Shown here: positions 5,480-28,260 of the stretch, one piece after another
How positions within the stretch are numbered: the stretch's first letter is position 1
Layout: each line of letters starts with the position of its first letter
Assembly (NCBI GenBank): GCA_934153675.1
Contig: CAKPFG010000002.1
Coordinates: 32,692-96,691, forward strand
Reading direction: 5' to 3'
Length of the DNA stretch: 64,000 nucleotides
Source: an uncultured Bacilli bacterium
Lineage (GTDB): Bacteria > Bacillota_I > Bacilli_A > RF39 > UBA660
Position numbers and translations under genes: made by a program
The notes under the pieces: generated by a model
What the model was told of the DNA's origin: nothing
The model's input: only the letters and a program-made list of their open reading frames with translations
Database searches by the model: none

Positions 5480-5483
5480 TTCA

Positions 5484-5747
5484 TCACCTCCTATTTTTTC
5501 TCTCATTATTCAAGTAGTTTAGAAATTTTATCATTTCTAATAAAGATTTGTCATCAAATACTGTTTCATCATCAGGATAAAAACAATATTTCCTCCATCG
5601 AGAGTTGTATTTGACATATCCTAGTTTTATAAATTCATTTTGTTGATTTGTTATTTCATATATTGGTGTTTTTCTTCCATCAATATATTCAGGGAAAGCA
5701 GTCATATATTTACCTAACTTCATAAATGTTATTCCAATACTATTCAT
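5484..5747 (-). CDS. Hypothetical phage protein
   Basis: ORF. Confidence 0.45.
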   Translation of the reverse strand: MNSIGITFMKLGKYMTAFPEYIDGRKTPIYEITNQQNEFIKLGYVKYNSRWRKYCFYPDDETVFDDKSLLEMIKFLNYLNNERKNRR

Positions 5748-6007
5748 TTCATCACCTCATTATCTAATTTTCTACCACAAAAAGGGCAATAATTAATATC
5801 AACATATCTTGCACCATCTAAAGTATCTATCATTAACCCTGCTTTTTTATCTGCTTTGCCTTTTAATATAAATAATTGAAGATAGTCTTGTAATAAACAA
5901 CTTCTGCTTTTATAACCTGCAGTTGGTTTTAATTCTGCTTGAGTGATTGGTTTTCCTGAAATATGATTATTAGACTCTTGACAATAATTACATTTATTCA
6001 TATTCAC
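5744..6007 (-). CDS. Hypothetical zinc-finger protein
   Basis: CNYC...CPFC pairs. Confidence 0.45.
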   Translation of the reverse strand: MNMNKCNYCQESNNHISGKPITQAELKPTAGYKSRSCLLQDYLQLFILKGKADKKAGLMIDTLDGARYVDINYCPFCGRKLDNEVMK

Positions 6008-6305
6008 CTCTTAATAATTTATCTAAGTATTTTTCATCAGTATTTTTATAATCTACTTGTCTGCCTGTTTCAAAAAAATATTGAAGCATCGCTTTTGCAC
6101 AAGCACAAGGTAAATCACTACCATCACAATAATCACATGCATACCAATAACCACAAGCATTAAGCCCTGTTAAATCACTTTCTTTTCTAATTTTATCACT
6201 ATCACAATAATTTTGAAATGCCTCTTTCCATTTCTTTTTATCATAATCAGTAACTACTGTTCTATCTATATATGGTGTATCATCAAACAATTTATTTTTA
6301 TCCAA
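5994..6305 (-). CDS. Hypothetical Cys-rich phage protein
   Basis: ORF, multiple Cys. Confidence 0.45.
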   Translation of the reverse strand: MDKNKLFDDTPYIDRTVVTDYDKKKWKEAFQNYCDSDKIRKESDLTGLNACGYWYACDYCDGSDLPCACAKAMLQYFFETGRQVDYKNTDEKYLDKLLRGEYE

Positions 6306-6416
6306 ATTGTTACCTCCTATCGATTATCAAAATATAAATAAACTATCAATCCTATTAAACCAATTAACCATCCAATATCAAACCAAATTATAAATTTTAC
6401 TACTTCTGCATCCATA

Positions 6417-6965
6417 TTAAATACTGTGTGGAGTTTCTACATATACAAATATTGCTTTTTTATAAGGAAGATTATTAGTTATTCTTGTTGCATCCTCTTC
6501 TGACATATCATCATTATTATCTAATAAATACTCTATATAATCTTCTTGTTCATCTTTATAAACAATATTCATATCATTCCACCCATAAGGTTCAACTGTG
6601 GCATATTCTTTAATTTTTGCTTTTCCAAACTCACCCATCCAATAGCCACAATCACCACCTACTATTTCATAATCAACATAAGCATATATTGGTAAATTAG
6701 GATTATTTTTAATTAATTCTATAAGATTATTATTATTTATATCATTGTTTATATTTTCAACAAGTTCCATAGTAAATTTAATATTTTTACTTTGATTTTC
6801 ATAGTTAAGTGTATTACAATAATATTTCGCTTTATCTTCTTCATAAATACCTGCTTCTTCTATTTCCATAGTTGGTATAACTCTTAAAGTAGGTTCTATA
6901 TCAAATACTATTGCTTTAACATAACCATAATTATCAATTCTAATTCTATATAATTTATTTTTCAT
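6417..6965 (-). CDS. Hypothetical phage protein
   Basis: 182-aa ORF. Confidence 0.5.
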   Translation of the reverse strand: MKNKLYRIRIDNYGYVKAIVFDIEPTLRVIPTMEIEEAGIYEEDKAKYYCNTLNYENQSKNIKFTMELVENINNDINNNNLIELIKNNPNLPIYAYVDYEIVGGDCGYWMGEFGKAKIKEYATVEPYGWNDMNIVYKDEQEDYIEYLLDNNDDMSEEDATRITNNLPYKKAIFVYVETPHSI

Positions 6966-6988
6966 TTTATTTTCCTTTCTTATATATC

Positions 6989-7234
6989 TTAAAATGGTAT
7001 AGTTGTTGCTAATATTTCTATAATTTGTATATCAGAGTTATTTTTATGTACCAAATCATCAGTATATGTTTTTTGATAATACTCTAATTTAGTATCAATA
7101 CTTTTGTTGTAATTCATAATGATTTCAGGTTCTTCTTGATTAGGCATTTTTAATTTAATAACCATATCTAATCCTTTTTCTTTAACATCTTTAAAGAATT
7201 GAACCATTTCTTTCATTGTTAGTTTATCTTCCAT
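6989..7234 (-). CDS. Hypothetical phage protein
   Basis: ORF. Confidence 0.4.
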   Translation of the reverse strand: MEDKLTMKEMVQFFKDVKEKGLDMVIKLKMPNQEEPEIIMNYNKSIDTKLEYYQKTYTDDLVHKNNSDIQIIEILATTIPF

Positions 7235-7519
7235 CTATTTCACCTCGATTTCTTGATATGTTTTTAATATTTCATCAAATTCTTTAGATGTTTCTTTTAA
7301 ATTACATAAATAATAAATAGATGCATCTTTATTAAATGAAAATACTTCTTTATATAAATTTTCAGTAAATCTTCTATCTTTTGCATATACTGTTACCTTA
7401 TCTTTTCTAGGTATAATATGTAAATCAATACCTCTTATCAATGCTCTACCTTTAAAAATGTGTATAACTTTTTTATATAAATAATTATTAATAATCTTTT
7501 CTATTTTTCTTTCTATCAT
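7235..7519 (-). CDS. Hypothetical phage protein
   Basis: ORF. Confidence 0.4.
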   Translation of the reverse strand: MIERKIEKIINNYLYKKVIHIFKGRALIRGIDLHIIPRKDKVTVYAKDRRFTENLYKEVFSFNKDASIYYLCNLKETSKEFDEILKTYQEIEVK

Positions 7520-7678
7520 TATCTATACCTCCAATATTTTTGACATATTTCATTATCAAAAAATTCATTTAATGGCATTGTTGAACACTTATAATCAATA
7601 ATAAAATCATTCACCTCATAGATTATGAAACACACAAAGGCAAATATAAATAAAATCAATAATATTAATAATATATTT

Positions 7679-7900
7679 TTAATCTTTTTGTTCATTTTTA
7701 TCCTCCTTTGGTTTTACATAGGTAATTCCTTTATCATTCTTATCTCTTGAAGTAAATGATATTTTACATAGTTTACTTTTGGCTTTAAAATACTTTTGTT
7801 TTTCTTTAAAATCCAATTTTGCAACTTCTTCTTCTGATATGTTAGTTATTTTTAATAATTCTTGTAATTTCTTTTCTCTTTTAATAGCATCATTTATCAT
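7679..7900 (-). CDS. Hypothetical phage protein
   Basis: ORF. Confidence 0.35.
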   Translation of the reverse strand: MINDAIKREKKLQELLKITNISEEEVAKLDFKEKQKYFKAKSKLCKISFTSRDKNDKGITYVKPKEDKNEQKD

Positions 7901-8246
7901 TTTTGCTTACCTCCTCATTAATTCTTTCTATTTGTCTATCAACTTTAAATTTCATAATTTCCTTAACATCTGCATCAGAAATGTTATAGTATAATTGCAT
8001 TTGTTTTAACATCACCATTACATCTGCAATTTCTTCTTTAATAGCATCTGTAATACTAACTGCTTTTCTATTATTTAAACTAGCCATAATTGGCTCTAAT
8101 GCATTACATACAATATCAATGGGGTTTCTTTTCCTTTCTTCATATTGAATAACTGCTTCATTTAATTCAAATATTTCACTTTGAAAATACTTTAATTGTT
8201 TTTTAATTCCATAGTAATTAATTATTTTTCGTAATCTCTTATTCAT
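7890..8246 (-). CDS. Putative MazG-like nucleotide pyrophosphohydrolase
   Basis: About 118 aa with EIFELNEAV and EEIADVMVML acidic helices typical of small phage MazG-like proteins. Confidence 0.35.
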   Translation of the reverse strand: MNKRLRKIINYYGIKKQLKYFQSEIFELNEAVIQYEERKRNPIDIVCNALEPIMASLNNRKAVSITDAIKEEIADVMVMLKQMQLYYNISDADVKEIMKFKVDRQIERINEEVSKNDK

Positions 8247-8355
8247 ATAGCATAGTCCTTTCTTTTCATCTGCATAATTAAATCAATTTTAAATTTATCT
8301 TTATTATCTCTATAACAAATACCTTTATAGGTATCTAGGCTAGACATATAACCAT

Positions 8356-8631
8356 CTAAAAGAATTGTGAGGGTTCAATGTTTTCCATAATGATTTCACC
8401 TTTATAGACTCTATAAACTAATTCAATTGTTCCATAAACAAATTTAAACTCTTTTGATGCTTTTAATTCTCTACGATATATACCATCAGGAACTGATGCA
8501 TCTAATTCTTTTTTAACTTTAAATATTAATTGTTTATAGGCAATAGGACAATATATTTTTAGACTTCTTAACTTTTTATTAAAATCATTCTCATCTATAT
8601 ATAAAAGTCGCATTGTATTCCCTCCTTTCAC
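8356..8631 (-). CDS. Hypothetical phage protein
   Basis: ORF. Confidence 0.4.
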   Translation of the reverse strand: MKGGNTMRLLYIDENDFNKKLRSLKIYCPIAYKQLIFKVKKELDASVPDGIYRRELKASKEFKFVYGTIELVYRVYKGEIIMENIEPSQFF

Positions 8632-8870
8632 TACTTTTCACCTCTTAATAAAGATTTTAATGTCTTATTTTTGGCTCTTAAATTCTTATTTTCCTTTCTT
8701 AATCGTGATATCTCACTTGGTTCTTGTAATTTTTCCATAAATGTTTTAAATAATTCATCTTTGATTATATCTTCTAATGCACCTTTTTCTACTTCTAATG
8801 AATTTATTTTATGGATTAATTGAATTTTACTGAAACTAAAGATGTCTTTGATTTTCATTTTATTCGCCAT
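8631..8870 (-). CDS. Hypothetical coiled-coil phage protein
   Basis: ORF. Confidence 0.4.
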   Translation of the reverse strand: MANKMKIKDIFSFSKIQLIHKINSLEVEKGALEDIIKDELFKTFMEKLQEPSEISRLRKENKNLRAKNKTLKSLLRGEK

Positions 8871-9267
8871 CTTCTCTTAACCTACCTTTCAAATACTTTT
8901 TTAAATGATAATATGGGGTAGTTCTTTCAAAATTAAGTTCTTTACCTATTTGATGCCAATTCTTGCCATCTATAAATCTTGCTCGGATAATTACTCTGAC
9001 ATTACTATCCTCGATTGTTTCAAGAAAATTTTCTATCTTTAATTGTTCATCTAATAACTTATCTTGTTTCTTTTTAAGTATCATTTCTAATTTTGATTTT
9101 TTAATAACTAAACTTTCCACAGGATTACCAACATGTCCTGAACCTTGTGGCATTCCTGATATTTTTGGACTTCCAATCGTTGTATCATCTAATTCTTTTA
9201 AATTTGCTTTTATTTGCTCTATTTCAAGTTTTATTACATGATACTTTGATAATTCATCTATTGTCAT
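8860..9267 (-). CDS. Putative phage transcriptional regulator with sigma-70 region-4-like HTH
   Basis: C-terminal RVIIRARFIDGKNWHQIGKELNFERTT resembles a sigma region-4 HTH. Confidence 0.4.
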   Translation of the reverse strand: MTIDELSKYHVIKLEIEQIKANLKELDDTTIGSPKISGMPQGSGHVGNPVESLVIKKSKLEMILKKKQDKLLDEQLKIENFLETIEDSNVRVIIRARFIDGKNWHQIGKELNFERTTPYYHLKKYLKGRLREDGE

Positions 9268-9683
9268 TTCATCACCTCTTTATATTCAATTTCTTTTATT
9301 TGATTGTAATTTAATGCTTTAATATCAGATATAACATCATTTGGTATATTTTCAGGAAATTCTTTGTGTAATGAATACCAATCAACCATATCTAATAAGT
9401 ATTTTTTATTTTTAGGATTACTATTTTCAATTACTTCAATATAATAGTTTTTTAGACTCTTTCTATATTCATCTATAATATCTGCTAATGTAGGCATAAA
9501 CTTATTATTTCTAATAATTACTTTAATAGCATTTAGTAAGGCAATAGGATGAAAAATACCTAATTCTTCCTGATATAAACTTACTAATCCTAGAAACTCC
9601 TCATCGGTCAAATCTTTAAAATAGTAAGGGTAAGCAATTTTAAATTTTGCTATAACAATACTAATTAACTTTGATTGTTCCAT
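9264..9683 (-). CDS. Phage replication protein (partner of replisome organizer)
   Basis: Translationally coupled downstream of replisome organizer. Confidence 0.4.
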   Translation of the reverse strand: MEQSKLISIVIAKFKIAYPYYFKDLTDEEFLGLVSLYQEELGIFHPIALLNAIKVIIRNNKFMPTLADIIDEYRKSLKNYYIEVIENSNPKNKKYLLDMVDWYSLHKEFPENIPNDVISDIKALNYNQIKEIEYKEVMK

Positions 9684-10455
9684 TATGAATACCTTTTAAT
9701 ATTTCCATTTGACTATCAACCTTGACCGATTTATTAGTAGAATAGTCATCATTCCAACATTTTTGATTGAACCATGTTGAACCATGTTTTATAAACTTAC
9801 TATCAACTTTTTCTAATTTAATGTAATTAATATAATTCTTTAATCCTTGTGCAATTTCTTCATAAGTTGTTCCTTGTTTTCTAGCAAGTATATATTTATT
9901 TTTGGCTTGGTCTTTTCCTTTTTTATTAGGATAGTGTGACCATAGTTTTTCAAATTCTTCTTCATATTGTTTTTTTAATTCATTGTTATCAGAGGCAGGT
10001 AAAAGTGATTGCTCATTATTATTAACCTCATCTATACTATACTGACTTATACTATCCTGTCCTATCCTATCCTGTGTATCCATTTGGTATCCATTTGGTA
10101 TACCATTATTATTTTTTAATACATAACCATCATTAGGTTTTAAGTCTAACATTGCCTTTTCTTCTGTATATACAGTAGGCTTATATCTATCGTTTCTAAT
10201 ATAGTTGTGAATTTTCCAATGTTTAATAACAACAATTCCTTTATCAAATGGAATTATAAATTTTCTTAAAATTAAGATGTTCATATCATCGTTAGAAGCA
10301 CCACATATCTTCATTATTTTTTTAGGACTATTTACAAAACCATCATCATCGGCTCTCATTCCTAAATCATAGTAAAGTAGTCTTGCACTCATTGGCATTT
10401 CTAAAAATGCATCACTATCTATTATTGTTTTTGCAAACATTCTTCTTTCTGCCAT
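9661..10455 (-). CDS. Phage replisome organizer / replication initiation protein
   Basis: N-terminal MFAKTIIDSDAFLEMPMSARLLYYDLGMRADDDGFVN matches the phage replisome-organizer N-terminal domain; internal direct repeats (candidate ori). Confidence 0.7.
   Translation of the reverse strand: MAERRMFAKTIIDSDAFLEMPMSARLLYYDLGMRADDDGFVNSPKKIMKICGASNDDMNILILRKFIIPFDKGIVVIKHWKIHNYIRNDRYKPTVYTEEKAMLDLKPNDGYVLKNNNGIPNGYQMDTQDRIGQDSISQYSIDEVNNNEQSLLPASDNNELKKQYEEEFEKLWSHYPNKKGKDQAKNKYILARKQGTTYEEIAQGLKNYINYIKLEKVDSKFIKHGSTWFNQKCWNDDYSTNKSVKVDSQMEILKGIHNGTIKVN
10030..10105. repeat. Cluster of short direct repeats inside the replisome-organizer gene (candidate iterons / phage ori)
   Basis: tatactat x2, cctatcc/tcctgt repeats, tatccatttgg x2 in tandem. 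Confidence 0.4.
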
Positions 10456-10579
10456 TATGCCACCTACTTTACAATCTTTTTTTTAATTTCTTTATACATT
10501 GAAATAAGTAAAATACTTAATATAAACATCCCTAAACTAATTAAAATTACTGCTCCAAAAAACTTTAAAATACTTATAA

Positions 10580-10822
10580 TCATATATCTTCCACCTCCTC
10601 TAAATCCTTTACAAGGTGATAGATTGCATAACTTGTAGTATGACCATATCTATTTTTGCCTTGAACCATTTCAGTTTCTATTCCAAAACCTCTTTCTCGT
10701 AAAATAAATATTATTCCTGATAATCTAGTTGCTCCAAATCTTTTGATTGCCTCGTAAGAAGTGATTTGTTTATATTTTCTTAAATATGCGATTATTTCGG
10801 ATGTTTGACTCTTTTTACTCAT
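10580..10822 (-). CDS. Helix-turn-helix domain protein
   Basis: Small HTH-like ORF in early region. Confidence 0.45.
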   Translation of the reverse strand: MSKKSQTSEIIAYLRKYKQITSYEAIKRFGATRLSGIIFILRERGFGIETEMVQGKNRYGHTTSYAIYHLVKDLEEVEDI

Positions 10823-10824
10823 AA

Positions 10825-11022
10825 CTACACCCCCAAATAATCTGCAACTTCTTTACTACCTGTACAAACTTGGATAATTCCACCTTTACATGTGTAATTT
10901 CCTGCAGGTGTAGTTTTAGTTGTTTCTAAAGTAAATAATTGATATATAGCGATTGATACAATTGCACTTACAATTGCTACTAATGTATATTTAACCCATG
11001 GTCTTAATCTTCTTTTAGTCAT
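10825..11022 (-). CDS. Small membrane protein
   Basis: One TM helix. Confidence 0.35.
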   Translation of the reverse strand: MTKRRLRPWVKYTLVAIVSAIVSIAIYQLFTLETTKTTPAGNYTCKGGIIQVCTGSKEVADYLGV

Positions 11023-11206
11023 TTTTTTCTGCCTCCTTTATTCCTAAATATTGATAAAACATATCAGGGTAAATAATATAGTTCCATCTTTTATTTACTT
11101 TTACTGCCGAACCAAATGGCAATCTTCCTGTTTGTAATCCAACTCGAATAAATTGAGCAGATTTATGCATCAATGCAGATGCTTCTTTAATTGTGATTTT
11201 CTTCAT
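11015..11206 (-). CDS. Excisionase-like / HTH DNA-binding protein
   Basis: 63 aa, ITIKEASALMHKSAQFIRVGLQTGRLPFG (Xis/MerR-like HTH). Confidence 0.5.
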   Translation of the reverse strand: MKKITIKEASALMHKSAQFIRVGLQTGRLPFGSAVKVNKRWNYIIYPDMFYQYLGIKEAEKND

Positions 11207-11236
11207 AAAAAATCCATTCCTTTCTTATAATTTGTT

Positions 11237-11264
11237 TTTTGTTTTTTAGTTTGTCAGACTAATT
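11237..11264. repeat. Left arm of 28-bp perfect inverted repeat flanking the cro-cI module
   Basis: ttttgttttttagtttgtcagactaatt; reverse complement present at 12626-12653. Confidence 0.8.
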
Positions 11265-11499
11265 ATTGAGTTTTCTCAACTTTTTCTTTAAAAAAATATA
11301 ATGGGATATCATGTGCTTCAATATTTAATAACTTACTTGATTTAATGATTTCAGTTTGAGTAAATGAAACACCTTTAGATAATTTCTTGTATAAACTATA
11401 AGTAGATATTCCCAACTGCTCTGCAAATGATGATTGTGTATTAAATACTTCACGAATTTTACCTTTTAATTTACTATAATCAAATTCTAGTTTCATCAT
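11263..11499 (-). CDS. cro: Cro-like XRE-family repressor
   Basis: 78 aa HTH (SFAEQLGISTYSLYKKLSKG), divergent from cI. Confidence 0.7.
   Translation of the reverse strand: MMKLEFDYSKLKGKIREVFNTQSSFAEQLGISTYSLYKKLSKGVSFTQTEIIKSSKLLNIEAHDIPLYFFKEKVEKTQ
11266..11280. promoter_or_regulatory. Operator-like site TTGAGTTTTCTCAAC (copy 1, downstream of cro)
   Basis: 15-bp palindromic site identical to copy in cro-cI intergenic region. Confidence 0.55.
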
Positions 11500-11676
11500 C
11501 TTTCACCTCCCTCTATCTTGTTGAGTTTTCTCAACTACAATAAAAGTATAGCAAAATAATTTTTAAATTACAATAGAAAAAATGATTTTTCTCAACTTTT
11601 TTATTTTTTTTGATATCTTTTGTTGATTTTTCTTAATTTTATGTTTATAATAATTAATGTAAAGAGGTGGTATTTT
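11500..11676. promoter_or_regulatory. cro-cI divergent promoter/operator region with operator copies at 11521-11535 (TTGAGTTTTCTCAAC) and 11582-11596 (ATGATTTTTCTCAAC)
   Basis: Repeated palindromic sites between divergent repressor genes. Confidence 0.65.
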
Positions 11677-12366
11677 GTGATTGTAGATACATTTGCAAGT
11701 AGGTTAAATATTGCAATGAAAGAATGTAAAATGAAGCAGGTTGACTTGGCAAATAAGACAGGAATAGATAAATCTCTTATAAGTAACTATTTGTCAGGAA
11801 ACTATCAAGCCAAACAAAACAACATTTATAAATTAGCAAAAGTATTAAATGTTAGTGAGAGTTGGTTGATGGGATACGATGTTGACATGGATAGAGAATG
11901 GTTTGATGATAAAGAACCATCTGAAATATCAATTGACAATGCTATATATCTAGAAGCAACTACAAAGACAGTTAAAATACCTCTACTTGGCAAAGTTCCT
12001 GCAGGTATACCTATTGAAGCAATAGAAGATATAATCGGTTATGAAGATATTCCTTATAAATGGGTACAAAATGGTACTAGATACTTTGCTCTTAAAGTTG
12101 ATGGAAATAGTATGTATCCTGATTATCATACAGGCGATACAATAATAATTAAACAACAACCTGATTGTGAGTCAGGTGATGACTGTGTTGTTATGGTAAA
12201 TGGTGATGATGCAACATTTAAAAGAGTCATTAAACAAGAAAAGAGTATAATATTGAAGCCATTAAACAATGAATATGAACCATATTTATTTAATGAATAC
12301 GATATATTAACAAAACCTGTTAAAATCGTAGGTGTAGCAGTAGAAGTAAGAAGAAAGTTGAGGTAA
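11677..12366 (+). CDS. cI: CI-like repressor: XRE HTH + S24 (LexA-like) peptidase domain; start GTG 11677 or ATG 11716
   Basis: N-terminal HTH (QVDLANKTGIDKSLISNYLSG), C-terminal GNSMYPDYHTGD...K S24 motifs. Confidence 0.85.
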   Translation: MIVDTFASRLNIAMKECKMKQVDLANKTGIDKSLISNYLSGNYQAKQNNIYKLAKVLNVSESWLMGYDVDMDREWFDDKEPSEISIDNAIYLEATTKTVKIPLLGKVPAGIPIEAIEDIIGYEDIPYKWVQNGTRYFALKVDGNSMYPDYHTGDTIIIKQQPDCESGDDCVVMVNGDDATFKRVIKQEKSIILKPLNNEYEPYLFNEYDILTKPVKIVGVAVEVRRKLR

Positions 12367-12625
12367 TTATATGGGTGCTAGAGTAAGAACAATTAATAAA
12401 ATCGGAAATGGTAGATATTTTACTACAAGTTGGAAAGTAAGCGACTACTTAATATGTAATATATTATATTTTGTATTCTTCTACTCTTATTTTTTAATTT
12501 TTAAATATTTATTCTATGTTCCAATTAAATGGTGTGTAGTAAAGATAATTGATATTTTTAAATCCAAAAAACAATCATAAAAAAAAGACCTACTGCTCGA
12601 ACAGTAAGTCAAATGAAAAATCACA

Positions 12626-12653
12626 ATTAGTCTGACAAACTAAAAAACAAAAT
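12626..12653. repeat. Right arm of 28-bp perfect inverted repeat flanking the cro-cI module
   Basis: aattagtctgacaaactaaaaaacaaaa = reverse complement of 11237-11264. Confidence 0.8.
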
Positions 12654-12736
12654 ATAAGATATAATGTTATGGATTTTTCTATTTCATTATATCAAATATT
12701 CACCGAAAACACAATGGAAATGGAGGATTTTGATAG

Positions 12737-13780
12737 ATGAAATTACCTAATTCTTTCGGCTCTGTACAGAAGTTGAGTGGTAATAGAAGAAAACCTTATC
12801 GAGTAGTCAAAACTGTTGGATGGGATGAAAATGGAAAACAAATCAGAAAGACTATTGGATATTATGAAACTAGAACCCTCGCATTACAGGAATTAGCCTT
12901 ATTTAATGAAAAACCTTATGATATAGATGCAAGAAATATTACAGTAGATGAATTACATCAAAAATGGCAAAATGAGAAATATCCTAAAATAGCATATAAG
13001 ACTCAACAAGTATATAATATGTGTTGGAATTATTGTCAAGATGTTAAGGATATGGCATTTGTAGATATCAGATTAAATCATTTACAAGCAATCGTTGATG
13101 GTATGGGTAATAAATGGTCTGCTAAAAAGGCATTTAAGATATTATGGCATCAGATGTACGATTATGCTATTAAAAATGATATGGATGTAAGAAAGTATTC
13201 AGAATACATCGATATAGGCAAAAAAACCACTAAATTAGTGCGAATACCATTTGAAGAGGATGAAATAGACAAGTTATGGGATAATGTCGCTAGAATGGAC
13301 TTTATTGACACGATATTAATACTAATATATACAGGAATGAGAGTCGGCGAACTTTTAGATATTAAAGTAGAAAATGTTCATATAAACGAAAAATATATGG
13401 TTGGTGGCTCTAAAACCGAGGCAGGTAAAAATAGAGTCATACCATTCCATGAGAGAATAGTACCATTAGTAAAGAAATGGTATGATAATGCAATTAAAAA
13501 TGGTAGTGAATACCTAATATACAATCACGAATATAAACAAATGAAATATTGGAACTATTATCATGAGAAATGGGAAAAGATTATAGAACAATTAGAGTTT
13601 AGTCCTGAACATAAGCCTCACGATACTAGACATACATTCTCTACTCGTATGGATAGAACAAATGCTAATAAATTATGTATAAAAAGAATACTAGGACATG
13701 CTAGTAAGGATATTACTGATAAAGTATATACACATAAAGACATTGATGACCTATTAGAAGCAGTTAATATGTTAGAATAA
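12737..13780 (+). CDS. int: Phage integrase (tyrosine recombinase)
   Basis: 347 aa; HDTRHTFSTRM ... ILGHASKDITDKVYTH catalytic signature; N-terminal arm-type domain. Confidence 0.9.
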   Translation: MKLPNSFGSVQKLSGNRRKPYRVVKTVGWDENGKQIRKTIGYYETRTLALQELALFNEKPYDIDARNITVDELHQKWQNEKYPKIAYKTQQVYNMCWNYCQDVKDMAFVDIRLNHLQAIVDGMGNKWSAKKAFKILWHQMYDYAIKNDMDVRKYSEYIDIGKKTTKLVRIPFEEDEIDKLWDNVARMDFIDTILILIYTGMRVGELLDIKVENVHINEKYMVGGSKTEAGKNRVIPFHERIVPLVKKWYDNAIKNGSEYLIYNHEYKQMKYWNYYHEKWEKIIEQLEFSPEHKPHDTRHTFSTRMDRTNANKLCIKRILGHASKDITDKVYTHKDIDDLLEAVNMLE

Positions 13781-13842
13781 CTGCTTTTTTTATGAAAAAA
13801 ATAAAAAAATTCACTTAAATTATCACTTTATGATTGACAACT

Positions 13843-14603: not shown

Positions 14604-15014
14604 CTATCGTTTTGAGAATTGTGGTGCACGACGTGCTGCTTTTAGACCCGGTTTCTTTCTTTCCTTACTTCTTGGATCTCTTGTAACAAAACCTGCTCTT
14701 TTTAATATTTTTCTATAACTATCTTCATTTTCTTCATTAGCCTTATCATATTCCAATAAAGCACGAGTAATTGCTAATCTAATAGCTCCTGTTTGACCGG
14801 TGAATCCACCACCGTTAACTTTTACGTCTATATCAAATGTTTTTTCATTATTTGTAGTTACTAATGGTTGCATTAAATCCATTACATTTGTTTCATGTGG
14901 CATGAATTCTCTAACATCTCTACCATTAATTGTGATCTTACCAGTTCCTGAAGTCATTTTAACTTGAGCAACTGCAGACTTTCTTCTTCCTGTTGCAGTA
15001 AATATTTTAGCCAT
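14604..15014 (-). CDS. rpsI: 30S ribosomal protein S9
   Basis: [10 protein letters not shown] ... [17 protein letters not shown]. Confidence 0.95.
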
Positions 15015-15023
15015 AAATTCCTC

Positions 15024-15458
15024 CTATTTAACTTCCATAACAGCTGGTTTTTGTGCCATGTGTGGGTGAGTTTCACCACTATAAACAAATAACTTCTTTG
15101 ACATTTGACGACCTAATCTATTATGAGGAAGCATACCCTTAATAGCTCTTTCTACCATTTCTACTGGATATTTTTCCTTCATTTCACGAGCTGTTCTTTC
15201 TCTTAATCCACCAGTATATCCACTGTGATTATAATAAATTTTATTATCTAACTTATTACCAGTTAAATTTACCTTTGAAGCATTAATTACTATTACAAAG
15301 TCTCCACAATCTACATGAGGTGTATAAGTTGGTTTATGTTTACCACGTAGTACAGTTGCTACTTTAGTTGCTAAACGGCCCAAAGAAATGCCTTCTGCAT
15401 CTACAACATACCAATTACGCACAACATCTTCTTTTTTTTGCATAAATGAATTTTTCAT
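15024..15458 (-). CDS. rplM: 50S ribosomal protein L13 (start at internal Met of listed ORF)
   Basis: [29 protein letters not shown]. Confidence 0.95.
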
Positions 15459-20075: not shown

Positions 20076-21389
20076 TTAATCGATAAAAGTTATTTTAGCA
20101 TAACCATTACCTTGTTTTGCACAATTTGCTGTTGGAGTTGCACTCGTACATGTTGTGGAAATGGTTTTTGTAGATATCTCATTAGATTTTTGACAGTTAT
20201 AACAATACATAGTTTTATTAGTTAGAAGAGGATTTCCTATGTATCCTGAACCACCTCCGCCACCTCGATAATCTGTTTTAGCAGTTCCTCCATAGAAACC
20301 GCCTCCACCAGCAAAGGTACCATTTGTTTGTCCTTGTCCAAAGGCATAACCATTTGTTTGTGTTCCACCTTGTCCTCCAGTATTTTCGTTTATTGAGCCT
20401 TCTGATGTTCCAGCATTTCCTGAAATTCCACCTCCAGAACCCCCAAAACCATAATAAGTTCCATATGAGACTGCAAGATAACCAGCTGGGCCACCTCCAC
20501 CAGATACAATTAAAATATCATCTTTGTTATTTTCAAGTGATGAAAGAATACCACTAATTTTAGCAATATGAGTTGCTCCTCCACCGCCTCCACTATAAAC
20601 TATAGTAGTTCCAGCTGATGCAGAACCACCTCCATTGTAACCACCATCTGCTTTTTGAGCTGGATTCAAATTATTTTCTCCTTGACCACCAACATTTAAA
20701 TATAATTGTGCATCTACATTTAAATCTATTTCGCCTACAGAGTATCCTCCATAACCAGATAAAATATCTGAAGATTTAGCATAGCCTCCTTGAGCTCCCC
20801 ATGTTTCTAATTTATATCTTCCATTGTAAGGAACTGTGAATGTTTGTTCTCCACCAGTATAAGCATATAACCATTCTGTTTGTTTTACTTTTTTAAAGAC
20901 ATATTGTAACACTACAGCTGTATCTTGGTTTGGTGTATTAGTTGTAAATACTATTTTTAGTTTCTTTACTGTATTACTTGGTATTATATCTCCAACACTT
21001 ATATCTTGAATTTCATATTTTATATTTTTATTTGAGTAACTATCTTCTAGTATATCACTTAAGTAATATCTAGAATTTGAATCATTTGTTATTTCTATTT
21101 CATATGTTAGTTTAGAATTACTATCAGGTAGTGTTACAAATGTACTAGTAGTATCTTTGGTATATTTGTTATTATATGTTTCGTAACCTTTGTTTTCAGA
21201 TGATAAGACTTTTATATTGGTTACTCTTATATCTGTTTCTACTTTTACATATGCTTCTCCACTTATTGATAATTCTGTATTTAGGGCTGCATATCCATAT
21301 GAGGTAAATATTATTGCTATTACTACGGCTAGATATAAAAAAGGAATCTTTGATTTAAAGGTTCCTTTCCCTGATTTTATTGGTTTCAT
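20076..21389 (-). CDS. Large secreted glycine-rich protein with SipW-cognate-like signal region and Cys-rich C-terminus
   Basis: N-terminal TM + AALNTELSISGEA; TasA/Ig-like N domain; about 200-aa GG-rich region; C-terminal CYNCQ...C...C. Confidence 0.55.
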   Translation of the reverse strand: MKPIKSGKGTFKSKIPFLYLAVVIAIIFTSYGYAALNTELSISGEAYVKVETDIRVTNIKVLSSENKGYETYNNKYTKDTTSTFVTLPDSNSKLTYEIEITNDSNSRYYLSDILEDSYSNKNIKYEIQDISVGDIIPSNTVKKLKIVFTTNTPNQDTAVVLQYVFKKVKQTEWLYAYTGGEQTFTVPYNGRYKLETWGAQGGYAKSSDILSGYGGYSVGEIDLNVDAQLYLNVGGQGENNLNPAQKADGGYNGGGSASAGTTIVYSGGGGGATHIAKISGILSSLENNKDDILIVSGGGGPAGYLAVSYGTYYGFGGSGGGISGNAGTSEGSINENTGGQGGTQTNGYAFGQGQTNGTFAGGGGFYGGTAKTDYRGGGGGSGYIGNPLLTNKTMYCYNCQKSNEISTKTISTTCTSATPTANCAKQGNGYAKITFID

Positions 21390-22501
21390 TAAAATTCACC
21401 TTTTTTATGAGTTAATGTTAATCTTTCTTGGTATGCTCTTGTAAGTGTAAATCTATATGTTGCCTTAGATCCATTTAAGACAAAATATGCTTTATTACCA
21501 GGTTCTACTTCATAGAATAATATTGGTGTTTGTTCTATTTTTTGAGCATCTATTAATTCTTCAAATGTTTCAACTCTTATTAAGTTTTCACTTTCTCTAA
21601 AATCACTCTTTGCTTTTACTATATATGTATCATAATTTTTAAGTATTTTATATAAAGCATTTTCATATGGATCATTTGAATATCTTGATAAGTAAACACA
21701 TATAGAAATTATTATTCCAGATAAACCTAATATTGATAATAATGCTCCAGATATTAATAAGATAATATTACCTATTTCTATTTTTTCTGTATATGCTAAT
21801 GCTTTACTATTATTTATATCACTAGCAGTCAGTACTATATCTACTGTTTGTTCTGATAATGGTATTCTTATTTTTAAATTATTATTACTTGCTATTTTTT
21901 CAGTTGTTTTATCATAATCTCCATCAACACTTATTATCATCTTTAATTCTAAATAAGCATTTGATGTTAAACCATAATCTCTTCTAAATGAATTAGCATA
22001 GTTATTATATTTATCATAATCTATATCTATATCTTCATTAATAATAAAGTTATTATCACTAACTTTTTTTGCTGTTTCGTTTAGTAATACTTCATCTTTT
22101 GAATATAATACTTTTTTATCATCTGTTTTATCTGTTATTTTTAATGTTCCAACTATTTTATATTTATAGTTATAATTAACATTATCTGTTGAATGCATTT
22201 CATACTTAAAATCAACATTTATTGTATTTATTAAGGATGCTATATATTGCATATTTTTACCTAAGAATTTATCTTCATAGTAATTATTTTCTTTTAAATA
22301 TACTTTATAATCTATATTTCCTTTTTCATTATAAGATAATACTGCTTTATTATCTTTTTTTAATGAACTAAAAATACATAATGCTCCGAATGCTATTAGT
22401 ATTATAGATGGTATTACTAATAATAAAACCATTTTCTTTACATTTAATCTTTTCTTTTTTACATGATATACTTTATCTGCTTTTTCATATCTATATTCCG
22501 C
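21389..22501 (-). CDS. Bitopic/two-TM membrane protein of the sipW-type operon
   Basis: RBS gaaggaggt before MAEYRY; TM near N-terminus and second TM about residue 250; translationally coupled to neighbours. Confidence 0.5.
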   Translation of the reverse strand, partial: AEYRYEKADKVYHVKKKRLNVKKMVLLLVIPSIILIAFGALCIFSSLKKDNKAVLSYNEKGNIDYKVYLKENNYYEDKFLGKNMQYIASLINTINVDFKYEMHSTDNVNYNYKYKIVGTLKITDKTDDKKVLYSKDEVLLNETAKKVSDNNFIINEDIDIDYDKYNNYANSFRRDYGLTSNAYLELKMIISVDGDYDKTTEKIASNNNLKIRIPLSEQTVDIVLTASDINNSKALAYTEKIEIGNIILLISGALLSILGLSGIIISICVYLSRYSNDPYENALYKILKNYDTYIVKAKSDFRESENLIRVETFEELIDAQKIEQTPILFYEVEPGNKAYFVLNGSKATYRFTLTRAYQERLTLTHKKGEF

Positions 22502-22505
22502 CATT

Positions 22506-23669
22506 TTAATTACCTCCTTCAAATAGCCTATTTAACCACACTGTTGGATATCCTACTAATGCTATTTTAAATCTTACCTTTCCTATTACATCTTTTTCTT
22601 GTATATCCCAACTGTCTATACTTTTGTTATTATCTCCTTTAGTATTATAAATATATTTACCACTACTATCATCTATTTTTACTATTCTATGTAATATTAC
22701 TTTATTTTCTTTTTTATAAACTAATACATCACCTATTTTTAATTTATCATAATCTTTTGTCTTTTCTACTAATACTAAATCTCCTACTTGTATTTTAGGT
22801 TCCATTGAACCACTTCCTACTGCTAGAAAATAAAACTTAAATAATCCACTCATAAAACATACATAAACAAATAATACAACTGATAATATAACCCCTGATA
22901 CTGTTTTTAATGTTTTATGTTCTTTTTTTACTTCTTCTTTCTTTTTAGGATGAAGTATCATGTTATTTGTATAAGATATTAAATAAAGTAATAAGATAAA
23001 TGGATAAATAATGTTTAAGACACATTGTAAATAATCTGATATATTTGGTATTATTGGTAAATAATAATTTGGTATTTCCATTAATATTCTATAGATTATA
23101 TTTGTTTTATAACCATAATAGTAACAATTATATGTTAACATTATATTTTTCATTATTGATGGAAATATAACGAATGCCATTAATTCAAAAACTCCTTTAA
23201 AAGTTGTTAATGAATAAATACTATAATTTATACTAAAATCTACAAATATTAACATAAGTGTTGTAAGAATTATTATTAACTTTGATGATCTTCCTTTTTC
23301 TATAAATTGGTATCTTAATATTTCCGATATTATTATAATGGATAAGGTTGGAATTACTATTTTAAATAGGTGTTGTGTTCCTAATTTATAACTACTACTT
23401 AAAAAGCCTGATTTTGAACCAAAAAATACAAATGATAAAGATAGATATAAAAGAGTAAAGACTATAATTGAAAGCATAATACTTTTTTCATTTGAACTTC
23501 TATTTTTGGTATATCCTAATAGCATTATTGATAAAATAAATGCTATTATTAATGAAATTAAACATCCATATTCTTTAATCTTGAAAATATCAAATACAAA
23601 GCTTTCTAGGATCAATAATACTATTGTAGTTATAATTATACCTAATATTCTTTTTGTACTACTTTTCAT
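22506..23669 (-). CDS. sipW: SipW-type (ER/archaeal-type) signal peptidase I fused to an about 270-aa polytopic N-terminal membrane domain
   Basis: C-terminal AVGSGSMEP ... ILHRIVK ... GDNN S26 Ser/His motifs; about 8 predicted TM helices N-terminal; 387 aa vs about 190 for canonical SipW. Confidence 0.7.
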   Translation of the reverse strand: MKSSTKRILGIIITTIVLLILESFVFDIFKIKEYGCLISLIIAFILSIMLLGYTKNRSSNEKSIMLSIIVFTLLYLSLSFVFFGSKSGFLSSSYKLGTQHLFKIVIPTLSIIIISEILRYQFIEKGRSSKLIIILTTLMLIFVDFSINYSIYSLTTFKGVFELMAFVIFPSIMKNIMLTYNCYYYGYKTNIIYRILMEIPNYYLPIIPNISDYLQCVLNIIYPFILLLYLISYTNNMILHPKKKEEVKKEHKTLKTVSGVILSVVLFVYVCFMSGLFKFYFLAVGSGSMEPKIQVGDLVLVEKTKDYDKLKIGDVLVYKKENKVILHRIVKIDDSSGKYIYNTKGDNNKSIDSWDIQEKDVIGKVRFKIALVGYPTVWLNRLFEGGN

Positions 23670-23735
23670 ATTAAATCTCCTTTCTCTTTGTATTTCATAT
23701 TTTCAGTTAAAGAAAAACTTTAACTGATTTTTTTA

Positions 23736-24320
23736 TTAGTTTTGTGAGTATACTACTGTTGTTTCTAGATTACTTATAGCAACATCATCTGTTGGTAATT
23801 CACTTGCTACAGTATCTGCACTATAAGTTAATGTTAATTTTAAGTTCTTAGTTTCTTTTGAATCTAATGTATCATTTTCTGCAATTGGACTTCCATCTGC
23901 ATATGTTAATGTATATGATAAGTTTTTACATACATTTGAAGCATCTATAGTTGCATTTGCTCCATTACCAGTACATGTTGGTGTAGGAATTACTATTGAT
24001 GATACTTTTGCATTAAATGTTCCTTCATTTGTAACATCAAATGTATAAGTTATACTATCACCAGGTGCTGTAAATGTAACATTATAATCTCCTATATGTG
24101 TATCTTCATTTGAAAGTGTTGGTGCTGTAACCTCTTGTGCTTGTCCTGTTAATGTTGCTGTTGATAGATTAGCAAATTTAATTTTCCAAGATGATGCTTT
24201 AACTTTACCAGATCCGTTTATTGTAAGATTTGTTGAAAAAGCGGCAAAACCAACTCCTACAACTACTATAAGGGCAATTACTCCAACTGCCATAATTACT
24301 TTAAAATTTTTATTATTCAT
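23736..24320 (-). CDS. TasA/camelysin-like secreted protein with SipW-cognate-type signal peptide (paralog 2)
   Basis: Strong RBS aaaggagga; signal peptide then AAFSTNLTINGSGKV; two conserved Cys; C-terminal VVYSQN. Confidence 0.6.
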   Translation of the reverse strand: MNNKNFKVIMAVGVIALIVVVGVGFAAFSTNLTINGSGKVKASSWKIKFANLSTATLTGQAQEVTAPTLSNEDTHIGDYNVTFTAPGDSITYTFDVTNEGTFNAKVSSIVIPTPTCTGNGANATIDASNVCKNLSYTLTYADGSPIAENDTLDSKETKNLKLTLTYSADTVASELPTDDVAISNLETTVVYSQN

Positions 24321-24339: not shown

Positions 24340-24885
24340 TTACCTTTGTGAATAAACAGCGGCAATACTTAAATTACTTACATCTACTTCGTTTAATGGT
24401 AGTTGACTACCAGTATACGATAATTTTAACATTAATTGTTTTTTCTCTTTTGAATTTAAAACATCTCCAACTTTTATTTTGGTTCCATCTTGGTACATCA
24501 ATTCATATTTTATGTTTTTGCATACTAACTCAGCATCTTCTTTTCCTTGTTCTCCACTTCCACTGCATATAGGTGTTGCTATTTGAATAGAACTTAATTC
24601 AGCATTCAAACCTCCATCATTTACTACCTCAAATAAGTAAGAAATAGAATCATTAGGATTTTGTAATTTAACATTTAAATTGACAATGCTAGTTGATTTA
24701 TCAGCAATATATGGTTTAGATATTTCTATTGTATTTCCATTTATTACTGGATCATTTAGATTTGCAAAGTGGATGTCCCAATTTGCAGACCCCATCTTCA
24801 TTTTCCCCCTTATGTCTAAAGATGTAGAAACCATCGCAAATGATATAGGAATTGATACTAACATTAATATCATGGCACAAACCAT
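24340..24885 (-). CDS. TasA/camelysin-like secreted protein with SipW-cognate-type signal peptide (paralog 1; start uncertain)
   Basis: Signal peptide then FAMVSTSLDIRGKM; same conserved blocks as paralog 2 (WxIxFANL, TPxCxGxG, CKN, VYSQ). Confidence 0.55.
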   Translation of the reverse strand: MVCAMILMLVSIPISFAMVSTSLDIRGKMKMGSANWDIHFANLNDPVINGNTIEISKPYIADKSTSIVNLNVKLQNPNDSISYLFEVVNDGGLNAELSSIQIATPICSGSGEQGKEDAELVCKNIKYELMYQDGTKIKVGDVLNSKEKKQLMLKLSYTGSQLPLNEVDVSNLSIAAVYSQR

Positions 24886-25093
24886 TATCACTTTTTGATT
24901 TTTCAATATATCACCACACTTTCTAGAATAACCATAAAGCACTTATTATTTTTATGTTATCCTATTATCATTAGTATACCATATAATTTCATTTTTTTTA
25001 CAATTTTTTGATTTTTTCCAGTGAAAAAGAGTAAATTTTCTTTGCAAAGAAATTTGATATAATTACTACATAATAAAAAGGTGGTATGAAGTA

Positions 25094-25438
25094 ATGAATA
25101 GAAAAGAAAGAAGAACTTTAAAAAAAGATAAGGATTTGGTAAAGGAATTATATTCTATTATTAATAAATATCTTCCTAAATTATTTGATATGTTTGAGGG
25201 CTTGACTGATTCTAGAAATCAAAGTTATGTTACTTATAAAACGAAAACTATCTGTGTAACTAGACTATTCAGTCTTCTTTGTGGCTTAACTACTATGACT
25301 GATATTTCTTTTGATGACTTTAACTCTGATAATTGTATAAAGAATTTATCCAACATATGCAATCAAGATTTAGAAGAGATTCCTTATTGGAAAACTATTC
25401 AGGATGTATTTGTAAAAATCAAAACATATGAATTCTGA
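25094..25438 (+). pseudogene. Transposase N-terminal fragment (ISAs1/IS4-like DDE_Tnp_1-associated domain), truncated
   Basis: FEGLTDSRNQSYVTYKTKTICVTRLFSLLCGLTTMTDIS resembles H-repeat/ISAs1 N-terminal domain; no DDE domain follows. Confidence 0.4.
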
Positions 25439-27203: not shown

Positions 27204-27225
27204 ACGTATCTAAAAACGTATCTAA
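27204..27225. repeat. Tandem motif ACGTATCTAAAAACGTATCTAA (copy A), overlapping stop of upstream gene
   Basis: Direct sequence. Confidence 0.85.
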
Positions 27226-27722
27226 TTTTTAACTGATTTTATTTGAAATAATGTTACTATATTTGCAATAATATTCATAAAATCAAATATTGCTGATGTA
27301 TATGATTTTATTACTATATCATATATAAACCACATAAGCATAGTAAAAACAATTAATAATTTGAATCTTTTGACATTTTTTATATTCATTAACCATATAT
27401 AAGTGACTGTACTGATTAAAGGCAATAATCCAATATACCTTAAATTATTGAATTTTAAAGTTAAAATTATTGCTAAAATTGTTATTACTATTTTTTCTTT
27501 TAGTCCTAGTTTATCTTTATAGCATAATATATTTCTAATCAAACTTAATGCATTTATTATAGCCCCAGTTATTCCACCCAAAATAATATTACTAATTACT
27601 GACATTCCTATTTGTACTGTCTGAAAATATAATATTTTTTTCTTTTGTTTTAATGTGCCAGAGTATACCATTAATATTGAAGCAATGAGCGCAATTATAT
27701 TCCCTATTATTATACTTACCAT
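27222..27722 (-). CDS. YgjV-like polytopic inner membrane protein (paralog 1)
   Basis: 166 aa, 4-5 TM, similar to adjacent paralog. Confidence 0.4.
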   Translation of the reverse strand: MVSIIIGNIIALIASILMVYSGTLKQKKKILYFQTVQIGMSVISNIILGGITGAIINALSLIRNILCYKDKLGLKEKIVITILAIILTLKFNNLRYIGLLPLISTVTYIWLMNIKNVKRFKLLIVFTMLMWFIYDIVIKSYTSAIFDFMNIIANIVTLFQIKSVKN

Positions 27723-27744
27723 TACTACATCCTAATTTTATTAA

Positions 27745-28260
27745 CTATTTTACTTTATTATTTTTCTTTTCATTATATACGGCTATGCCTGTTGAAATTA
27801 TCGAAATAATGTTTGAGATTATTCCTGCAATAGAAACAACAAAAATATTATATGATAACCACAAAAAATAGCAGAGTAAAGCTGTCTGCTTTACAACTTT
27901 TTGATCTCCATTCCAAATAGGTATTAGATATATAATTGCTGCAATTAAAGGAAATAAAGACCATATATTTTTATATGTAAAAATACTAACGATTATATAA
28001 ACTATTATAAAAATATATAAATATATTGATTTATTATACTTTTTATTTCTATCTTTCATTATTATAAAACTATCTCTAAAAATAGCCAAACCTTTTGTTA
28101 TACATCCTGTATATGCACCTAATAATAAATAATGTATTAAATTTAAAATATTAGATATAACCATGTTTCCTAATATTTTTTCTTTTTTACTTTTATGATA
28201 TGCAAAAATTGAAACAAAAAAGGAAGCAAAACCAATGAATTGTGAAATTATATAAACCAT
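27745..28260 (-). CDS. YgjV-like polytopic inner membrane protein (paralog 2)
   Basis: 171 aa, 4-5 TM. Confidence 0.4.
   Translation of the reverse strand: MVYIISQFIGFASFFVSIFAYHKSKKEKILGNMVISNILNLIHYLLLGAYTGCITKGLAIFRDSFIIMKDRNKKYNKSIYLYIFIIVYIIVSIFTYKNIWSLFPLIAAIIYLIPIWNGDQKVVKQTALLCYFLWLSYNIFVVSIAGIISNIISIISTGIAVYNEKKNNKVK

Follow-up and report, generated by a model that had tools for sequence, protein, structure and literature searches.

An uncultured low-GC Bacilli bacterium (lineage RF39; UBA660) encodes a signal peptidase I in which a domain of eight predicted membrane helices precedes the catalytic domain within one polypeptide. The gene lies on the minus strand at positions 22506-23669 of a 64,000-nucleotide stretch of assembly GCA_934153675.1 (contig CAKPFG010000002.1, positions 32,692 to 96,691 of the forward strand), here called the window, and its open reading frame (ORF) of 387 amino acids (aa) runs without interruption. 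This fused ORF is one genuine, conserved gene, and its product is very probably the dedicated peptidase of the operon in which it lies, a candidate fiber operon of the TasA/AbpX donor-strand type by its sequence. Taken whole, the explanation that we favor, with moderate confidence, is a dedicated pilin signal peptidase whose N-terminal domain (N-domain) serves as a built-in, noncatalytic scaffold or docking module. The gene is divided as follows:

22506 to 22838, minus strand: signal peptidase I catalytic domain of the endoplasmic reticulum (ER)/archaeal type (S26B), residues 278-387 and the stop codon (TIGR02228; invariant residues).
22839 to 22955, minus strand: Lys-rich cytoplasmic linker (residues 239-251) and signal-anchor helix of the peptidase (residues 252-277) (hydropathy, charge, AlphaFold, conservation).
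22956 to 23669, minus strand: N-domain, residues 1-238, a predicted eight-helix membrane domain of CPBP/Rce1 fold with degenerate catalytic motifs (AlphaFold, Foldseek, conservation).
23677 to 23681, minus strand: Shine-Dalgarno sequence AGGAG, 7 nucleotides (nt) 5' of the ATG, read from the sequence.

An earlier note on this DNA, made by eye from the letters, had described a single 387-aa ORF with no internal stop, and this is confirmed. It had also raised the objection that a frameshift might have joined two genes. The identical protein occurs in public assemblies. A frameshift or assembly artifact is excluded: all 27 near-identical variants in the 90% cluster of the protein, from independent NCBI, ENA, and Logan assemblies, are 387 aa long, and the architecture is kept by several hundred relatives at identities down to 25%. 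A full-length search returned 297 relatives, the best 120 of which all span the whole protein (∼375 to 400 aa), and 233 of the 264 relatives collected are 350 to 420 aa long. The shorter ones look like truncations at contig ends. The N terminus, MKxSxKKIL, is conserved family-wide. In one relative, P0151 (812 aa), the N-domain occurs with a truncated S26 domain and a long tail of metallophosphatase/5'-nucleotidase-like sequence; a chimera or a frameshift in the assembly, and not a third architecture, is the probable cause.

The N-domain was also searched for on its own against 1.84 billion cluster representatives. It was found in 550 proteins (254 at an E value of ≤1e−10), and nearly all of the best 150 of these are 365 to 400 aa long; about 10 shorter ones stop abruptly in the linker or the anchor helix. 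When the eight most divergent N-domains served as seeds for another search, 82 matches were obtained, all of them fused except for fragments. Thus, the question whether homologs are fused or split, which the earlier note had asked, is answered for the matches listed: no free-standing N-domain was found among the best 150 of the 550 or among the 82 of the divergent-seed search, only fused proteins and fragments. A further thought of that note, that the N-domain might be a common annotated extension in this clade, is half right, since the domain is standard in a sizeable clade (the 550 cluster representatives) but is still unannotated; the only names on relatives are "signal peptidase I," from Bacilli or Bacillota metagenome-assembled genomes (MAGs).

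The C-terminal part is, judged by its motifs, a catalytically complete ER/archaeal-type signal peptidase I with Ser288, His327, and Asp346. The motifs GSGSMEP (residues 285-291), HR (327-328), and GDNN (345-348) are present where the earlier note had placed them. TIGR02228, the model for archaeal/ER-type signal peptidase I, matches residues 249-379 at 105 bits against a cutoff of 51.85, and both Pfam S24 (PF00717) and S26 (PF10502) score above their cutoffs for the C-terminal part. S288, M289, H327, R328, G345, D346, and D352 are 100% invariant among 234 full-length members with 25 to 99% identity to the query, the sample used for all conservation values below. His327 stands where P-type signal peptidases have Lys. 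The best solved matches of the full-length model are human SEC11A and SEC11C (7p2p_A and 7p2q_A; E values of ∼1e−4, 27% identity), followed by the pilus-associated SipA and then by bacterial SpsB and LepB. The label SipW-type given to the protein before is apt insofar as this is a SipW-like ER/archaeal-type peptidase, but the SipW equivalog model NF046067 is not reached (78.9 bits versus a cutoff of 190). Only positions 35-135 of the 189 in that profile are matched, and the fused peptidase therefore lacks the C-terminal membrane segment of SipW. Ahead of the catalytic domain, AlphaFold places helices at 243-250 and 252-273, and the outer end of the anchor helix carries a conserved S274-G275-x-F277. 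An N-in/C-out anchor after the Lys-rich loop (residues 233-258) is predicted to put the catalytic domain outside the cell.

Hydropathy and two AlphaFold models place eight helices in residues 1-238 (3-25, 32-51, 61-87, 98-125, 130-151, 157-185, 188-202, and 212-237), in agreement with the roughly eight counted previously. On the outer face of the N-domain, residues 89-91 and 206-208 form a pair of short strands, and helix 188-202 must therefore cross the membrane. With the peptidase's own anchor, the eight extra helices make nine crossings. The polytopic domain of the earlier note is thus real, but its length is ∼240 to 250 aa rather than 270. The model of the N-domain alone has a pLDDT (predicted local distance difference test) of 88.9 and a pTM (predicted template modeling score) of 0.86; for the full-length protein the values are 82.1 and 0.63.

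The N-domain has invariant polar residues of its own. E116 and R119 in helix 4 are 100% invariant, and D/E144 in helix 5 (94%), N175 in helix 6 (91%), and Y193 in helix 7 (94%) are nearly so. The helices that bear E116, D144, N175, and Y193 are core helices 4 to 7 of the model, and the helix limits would put these residues at the middle of the bilayer or on its cytoplasmic side. A second set of conserved positions comprises G84 (98%) and G88 (92%) in the region between transmembrane (TM) helices 3 and 4, F89 (90%) in the TM3-TM4 loop, P205 (97%) in the outer strand region, and P208 (98%) in the outer strand. Within residues 1-250, neither His nor Cys reaches 40% at any position.

We consider it likely that the N-domain has the CPBP/Rce1 fold. 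Foldseek, with the N-domain model as the query and PDB as the library (the one program and the one library used for the fold), returned SpdC from the SagB-SpdC complex (6u0o_A; E value of 0.028, probability of 1.00, TM-score of 0.50) and the CAAX protease Rce1 (4cad_I; E value of 0.06, probability of 1.00, TM-score of 0.55). Each alignment covers ∼262 columns, all other matches have TM-scores below 0.3, and SpdC and Rce1 are both eight-helix CPBP-fold proteins. Sequence models give no such match. Residues 1-248 have no Pfam or NCBIfam match in the query or in 25 relatives, even at E values of ≤10, and by sequence the N-domain is thus assigned to no annotated family, including CPBP, exosortase, VanZ, and rhomboid. 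The earlier statement that no family could be recognized therefore holds for Pfam and NCBIfam, but CPBP does fit at the level of fold. A search of the window and of 151 kb of locus sequence found no canonical CPBP gene.

Active CPBP proteases carry the motifs EExxxR, FxxxH, and HxxxN/D (PMC12260438). A possible counterpart of the first in the N-domain is x-E116-x-x-R119, with one Glu and a spacing shorter by one residue, and in place of the second, helix 5 has F/L140-x-x-x-D/E144; the catalytic His residues of motifs 2 and 3 are absent. This Glu and this Arg, both on helix 4, recall motif 1 of Rce1. With the fold kept but the catalytic motifs missing, the N-domain fails the motifs that define the family. 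By that definition it is not a CPBP member, since it has no match to PF02517, neither catalytic His, and a Glu and Arg that lie one residue closer together, even though it shares the eight-helix fold of Rce1.

The fused peptidase sits in a co-directional, tightly packed block of five minus-strand genes. Its partners, and one element in the gap upstream of it, are as follows:

24340 to 24942, minus strand: AbpX/TasA-like fiber subunit, paralog 2, a member of alignment A4 that shares the signal and cleavage motif.
23736 to 24320, minus strand: AbpX/TasA-like fiber subunit of 194 aa (A4 profile, cleavage motif, conserved position).
23703 to 23727, no strand assigned: AT-rich hairpin of 10 bp within the 66 nt that separate the gene for the putative major subunit from that for the peptidase, without a T-tail on the coding strand.
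21389 to 22504, minus strand: DUF5305/TafG-type accessory membrane protein (PF17231 via the identical gene and homologs).
20076 to 21389, minus strand: putative tip or minor subunit of 437 aa (PF12810, hhalign to A4), whose start overlaps the stop of the DUF5305-type gene.

The 194-aa protein is probably the major fiber subunit. Its predicted cleavage, with the cut shown by an arrow, is ...VGFA↓AFSTNLTINGSGKV, and the mature protein would have a pI of 4.3 and two Cys residues. Homologs lie directly upstream of the fused peptidase in seven of the other loci examined (L002-L005, L008, L010, and L011). Paralog 2, with a predicted cleavage of ...ISFA↓MVSTSLDIRG, has an uncertain start (GTG at 24942, ATG at 24885, or the start of a 151-aa gene call in public contigs); its gene also precedes the peptidase in L012-L014, the public copies of the window's own locus. 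A4 is a profile of 13 small secreted proteins. Compared with solved structures, it matches AbpX (9sj2_C, E value of 8.4e−05; 9rhp_A, E value of 0.0013) in an alignment that begins at the predicted mature N terminus, and weak camelysin/TasA-family matches were found among the small secreted proteins. AbpX is an archaeal bundling and biomatrix protein of the TasA superfamily that polymerizes by donor-strand complementation (bioRxiv 10.64898/2026.01.04.697558).

The 437-aa protein combines a signal and predicted cleavage site of the shared type (...YGYA↓ALNTELSISG), an AbpX-like pilin module at residues 15-149 (hhalign to A4, probability of 92.6%, E value of 4.6e−07), and an ALK/LTK-type glycine-rich domain at residues 189-436 (PF12810, 121 bits). 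This layout of a pilin module and a glycine-rich domain is what would be expected of a tip or minor subunit, possibly an adhesin. The protein that follows the DUF5305 gene in L011 (632 aa) pairs the two modules in the same way, and a PF12810 glycine-rich protein holds this place in L012-L014 also.

The DUF5305-type gene starts 1 nt past the peptidase stop, is translationally coupled to the peptidase, and encodes 371 aa from an ATG or 377 aa from a TTG at 22522. Its product has two TM helices, one domain outside the cell, and a C-terminal domain in the cytoplasm. PF17231 was assigned through a precomputed match on the identical gene in L012-L014, and phmmer aligned the protein with proteins that pass the PF17231 cutoff (E values of 2.6e−42 and 6.5e−34). 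A direct hmmscan of the window's protein gave no PF17231 match even at an E value of ≤10, in discrepancy with the precomputed table; this may be an effect of the HMMER filters or of the Pfam version. The gene stands immediately 3' of the peptidase gene in every locus examined except L006. When the operon proteins were compared by tblastn with seven reference-MAG loci, the gene order was the same in genomes of 26% to 51% GC, and the DUF5305-type protein (31 to 51% identity) was conserved at least as well as the peptidase. The gene tables of distant members repeat the series of a ∼200-aa protein, the fused peptidase, and PF17231 (DUF5305). The hairpin at 23703-23727 could set the ratio of subunit to enzyme, through transcript stabilization or through partial termination or attenuation. 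A scan for promoters and terminators was uninformative, with fewer promoter-like sites than in shuffled sequence.

The secreted proteins share a cleavage motif, which a regular expression picked out in 21 proteins flanking the peptidase in the window and the loci, two of the 21 matches being spurious or truncated. Position P3 is G or A in 18/21, P2 is Y or F in 13/21, P1 is A in 18/21, and P1' is A in 16/21. The predicted cut is (Y/F)-A↓A, followed by x-(S/T)-T-x-L-x-I-x-G, and the mature proteins would begin A-(F/L/V/Y)-(S/T)-T-x-L-x-I-x-G. Mature position 2 is aromatic in 8/21, and the acidic position 4 described for AbpX is not conserved in subunits of the window type. Apart from the two spurious or truncated matches, the signal peptides have 19 to 25 uninterrupted hydrophobic residues that lead from the last Lys or Arg straight to the predicted cut, and those of the fiber subunits have no polar c-region. 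Within the window the motif is confined to this operon. The TasA cleavage site has an aromatic residue at P2' and requires the dedicated SipW (PMC10269814). The predicted cut in the fiber subunits resembles it: Ala occupies P1 and P1', and P2' is often aromatic.

Fiber operons with an ER/archaeal-type peptidase are known from SipW with TasA/TapA in Bacillus subtilis and from TafD-TafG of the haloarchaeal tafi pili; in both systems the peptidase is needed to free the N-terminal strand of the subunit. Tafi pili require the operon signal peptidase TafD, the DUF5305 protein TafG has been proposed as its helper, and TafD-TafG pairs duplicate together and are sometimes fused (PMC11821415, PMC12337348). 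The window operon shares the DUF5305 partner with the TafD-TafG pair. However, neither SipW (∼190 aa) nor TafD (four TM helices and a C-terminal outer domain) has an eight-helix N-terminal domain. The preprint on AbpX (January 2026) places Bacillota AbpX-like proteins in the TasA superfamily, regards DUF5305 as a putative accessory subunit of signal peptidase I, and remarks, in a single sentence, that ten TM helices are present in the dedicated signal peptidase I that bacteria and archaea encode in AbpX loci; it names no fold or family for the additional helices and nowhere uses the words CAAX, CPBP, and Rce1 (bioRxiv 10.64898/2026.01.04.697558). Those enzymes come from the same kind of operon, with DUF5305 alongside, and the subunits of the window match AbpX. 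Compared by description, the peptidase of the window differs in having nine helices and no C-terminal TM helix. The multi-helix architecture had therefore already been noticed, with no fold assigned to it, and together with its presence throughout a clade this makes the fusion less unique than the earlier note had assumed.

Degenerate relatives of CAAX proteases act as partners of membrane-anchored enzymes in two systems, and it is on these that our proposal for the N-domain is modeled. In Staphylococcus aureus, SpbR, a CAAX-protease-like protein whose motifs are degenerate (HELYMR, FIYLD, QIVAI), binds the signal peptidase SpsB through the TM helix and the extracellular domain of SpsB and controls its cleavage activity and its choice of substrates (PMC12260438). 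A polytopic degenerate CAAX-protease-like protein is thus paired with a type I signal peptidase, as in the window. In SpbR, motif 1 (HELYMR) still contains its Glu and Arg, and Asp stands for the His of motif 2 (FIYLD); the window family has sEILRY and F-x-L-x-D at these places, a likeness of motif pattern. Unlike the fused protein, SpbR and SpsB are two separate polypeptides, SpbR inhibits its partner, and SpsB is a housekeeping enzyme of the bacterial P type (Ser-Lys), whereas the peptidase of the window is an operon-dedicated ER/archaeal-type enzyme (Ser-His-Asp).

The second system is SpdC-SagB (6u0o), which supplies the best structural match of the N-domain in the form of an eight-helix, noncatalytic CPBP-fold scaffold. 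SpdC scaffolds the single-pass glucosaminidase SagB via TM3 and the TM3-TM4 loop and appears to bind substrate lipid in a membrane-open cavity that leads to the SagB active site (bioRxiv 10.1101/2020.05.21.109470). SpdC grips the TM helix of SagB, orients the active site relative to the membrane, and probably binds the membrane-embedded part of the substrate. In contrast to the fused peptidase, the enzyme here is a glucosaminidase acting on lipid-linked peptidoglycan in a noncovalent complex, and SpdC has 16% identity to the N-domain in the structural alignment. The outer elements of the N-domain (the TM3-TM4 loop and LPxxP) would be placed where SpdC and SpbR touch their partners. A catalytic subunit amid extra membrane helices, with a beta-sandwich accessory subunit, is also found in the eukaryotic signal peptidase complex (SEC11 with SPCS1/2/3; 7p2p), whose SEC11A/C subunits are the closest solved relatives noted above; its accessory helices come from unrelated small subunits and not from a CPBP-fold domain, and no homology is implied.

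By analogy with these systems, a noncatalytic role for the N-domain has, in our estimate, slightly better than even chances. The domain would be the cis version of the trans complexes SpbR-SpsB and SpdC-SagB. Its extracellular face, with G84, G88, and F89 of the TM3-TM4 loop and the strand 204-LPxxP-208, would hold the anchor helix and the catalytic domain, while an intramembrane cavity lined by Glu116, Arg119, Asp144, Asn175, and Tyr193 would dock the long signal peptide of the fiber subunits. With the signal peptide docked there, Ser288 would meet the (Y/F)-A↓A bond at the membrane surface, and the enzyme would be limited to its cognate substrates. Because the signal peptides of the substrates span the membrane with the scissile bond at its surface, gripping the signal-peptide helix and fixing the height of the peptidase would give both efficiency and specificity. 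Cleavage would free the N-terminal donor strand (A-x-S/T-T-x-L-x-I-x-G) for polymerization, and the DUF5305 protein would be a further accessory subunit. The earlier note had offered substrate docking among several roles; it is compatible with the explanation favored here and plausible, as a proposal drawn from these comparisons. The lipid-modifying role offered beside it finds nothing in its support.

Several observations weigh against the built-in scaffold. The link to CPBP is at the level of fold (Foldseek E values of 0.03 to 0.06, TM-scores of ∼0.5); PF02517 matches none of 25 members even at an E value of ≤10, and a sequence-profile search of PDB returned no CPBP chain, only spurious rhodopsin matches. 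In the full-length AlphaFold model the linker and anchor have pLDDT values of 58 to 70 and the pTM is 0.63, so that the model gives no confident prediction that the anchor or the catalytic domain docks on the N-domain. E116 and R119 are absolutely invariant, as catalytic residues would be. The equivalent residues of SpbR can be mutated without effect (PMC12260438), and the scaffold analogy therefore leaves that invariance unexplained. Finally, SpbR inhibits its peptidase, and permanent inhibition in a fusion makes little sense.

The invariance of E116 and R119, as strict as that of the S26 catalytic triad, is the starting point for the best of the rival explanations, in which the N-domain is an active His-less intramembrane glutamic protease, so that two proteases work in one protein. 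Cutting at the outer face would fall to the S26 domain, and the CPBP-like domain would cleave or clear the membrane-embedded signal peptide in the manner of signal-peptide peptidase or make a second maturation cut. An acidic residue at 144 (94%) in place of the motif-2 His, N175 (91%), and the predicted position of the conserved polar residues of helices 4 to 7, at the middle of the bilayer or on its cytoplasmic side, would suit such a site, and active CPBP proteases for membrane-anchored peptides do exist (MroQ and myxosortase). However, the two His residues required in all characterized active CPBP proteases are absent, with no conserved His or Cys in residues 1-250, the E-to-R spacing is unlike EExxxR, no CPBP model is matched by sequence, and the three characterized CPBP-like proteins with degenerate motifs (SpdC, SpbR, and LnsB) are noncatalytic. 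We therefore regard this explanation as unlikely. A related idea, which we hold to be slightly less likely still, is that an intramembrane site of E116, R119, and Asp144 captures, and possibly cleaves, the full-length signal-peptide helix, so that recognition, cleavage, and disposal are coupled in one polypeptide. If true, one bacterial protein would by itself correspond to the signal peptidase complex plus the signal-peptide peptidase of eukaryotes, and it would use a His-less variant of the CPBP catalytic center.

A somewhat more doubtful proposal makes the N-domain and the DUF5305 protein an assembly platform, resembling an usher or polymerase, that retains the cleaved subunit and promotes donor-strand exchange or anchoring of the fiber. 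The subunits do vary around a constant core of N-domain, peptidase, and DUF5305, the conserved extracellular residues G84, G88, and F89 and LPxxP (204-208) could contact subunits, and SipA of Streptococcus pyogenes, a structural neighbor and signal-peptidase homolog, is needed for pilus polymerization. Set against this, AbpX polymerizes by itself in vitro with calcium and no chaperone (bioRxiv 10.64898/2026.01.04.697558), and the N-domain residues with the highest conservation are intramembrane and not extracellular.

That the N-domain is an inert extra anchor without specific function, or an artifact joining two genes, is very improbable: the lack of an annotated family for residues 1-248 would agree with it, but the artifact is refuted by the 27 variants and by an architecture kept down to 25% identity, and the domain has invariant polar residues of its own and no free-standing version among the matches listed. 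Hardly credible is an exosortase/archaeosortase-like transpeptidase attaching fiber proteins to the cell surface, the sortase-like module of the earlier note, for although a domain of about eight helices beside secreted surface proteins would suit it, the Cys-Arg-His catalytic set is absent with no conserved Cys (or His) in the N-domain, the translated secreted proteins of the operon show no hydrophobic sorting signal at their C termini, and the fold search returns CPBP proteins.

Some features of the operon's surroundings are recorded here in their own right. Directly upstream of it in the window, 25094-25438 (plus strand) encodes a 114-aa transposase-associated fragment with a weak PF13808 match, and in L011 an ISL3 transposase and a serine recombinase (51-1352 and 6463-8049) stand on either side of the operon. 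Transfer of the operon from genome to genome is possible and would agree with its occurrence in MAGs of 26% to 51% GC. Two full copies (L002, 7001-8185; L003, 5579-6751) occur in one MAG labeled Candidatus Saccharibacteria with a GC content of ∼0.5, and L004 and L005 bear the same label; the labels of L002-L005 are unverified. Either the label is doubtful, or the peptidase family reaches past the Bacillota. In two distant members (L001, 5377-8059; L008, 4593-7254) the operon adjoins ruvA-ruvB-queA, unlike in the window, which suggests a preferred chromosomal neighborhood in part of the clade.

Elsewhere in the window, positions 1-13800 resemble a prophage. This block encodes both terminase subunits (large, 798-2543; small, 2515-3015), a DnaD-like helicase loader at 9661-10455, and, at 12737-13780, a tyrosine integrase, and it abuts rplM-rpsI at 14604-15458. 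Two tandem paralogous small membrane proteins of 166 and 171 aa are encoded at 27222-28260 (minus strand), the first matching the YgjV family (PF10688) in a public copy of the locus. The window's only Rfam match, an S10-Clostridia ribosomal-protein leader (RF03136, 37 bits) at 59364-59461 (minus strand), lies upstream of a ribosomal protein operon and is consistent with a Bacillota origin.

The meaning of these results is of specialist rather than broad interest, and their mechanistic part is conjectural. Bacterial homologs of CAAX proteases are very numerous and mostly of unknown role. In three recent cases, degenerate homologs were found to scaffold or regulate membrane-anchored enzymes, one of them a signal peptidase. 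If our explanation is correct, the system described here would join the peptidase of a TasA-superfamily operon to a degenerate CPBP scaffold. A natural and widely conserved fusion would be Rosetta-stone evidence that the partnership is general and not a staphylococcal peculiarity, and it would extend that partnership between CAAX-protease-like proteins and peptidases to the ER/archaeal peptidase type. A system contained in one polypeptide also lends itself to dissecting the interface and finding out what the invariant Glu and Arg do. For the fiber operons themselves, a likely fold is assigned to the unexplained extra helices of peptidases in AbpX/TasA-like loci, an emerging cross-domain class of biofilm matrix systems, and a clean substrate motif is defined for uncultured gut-type Bacillota.

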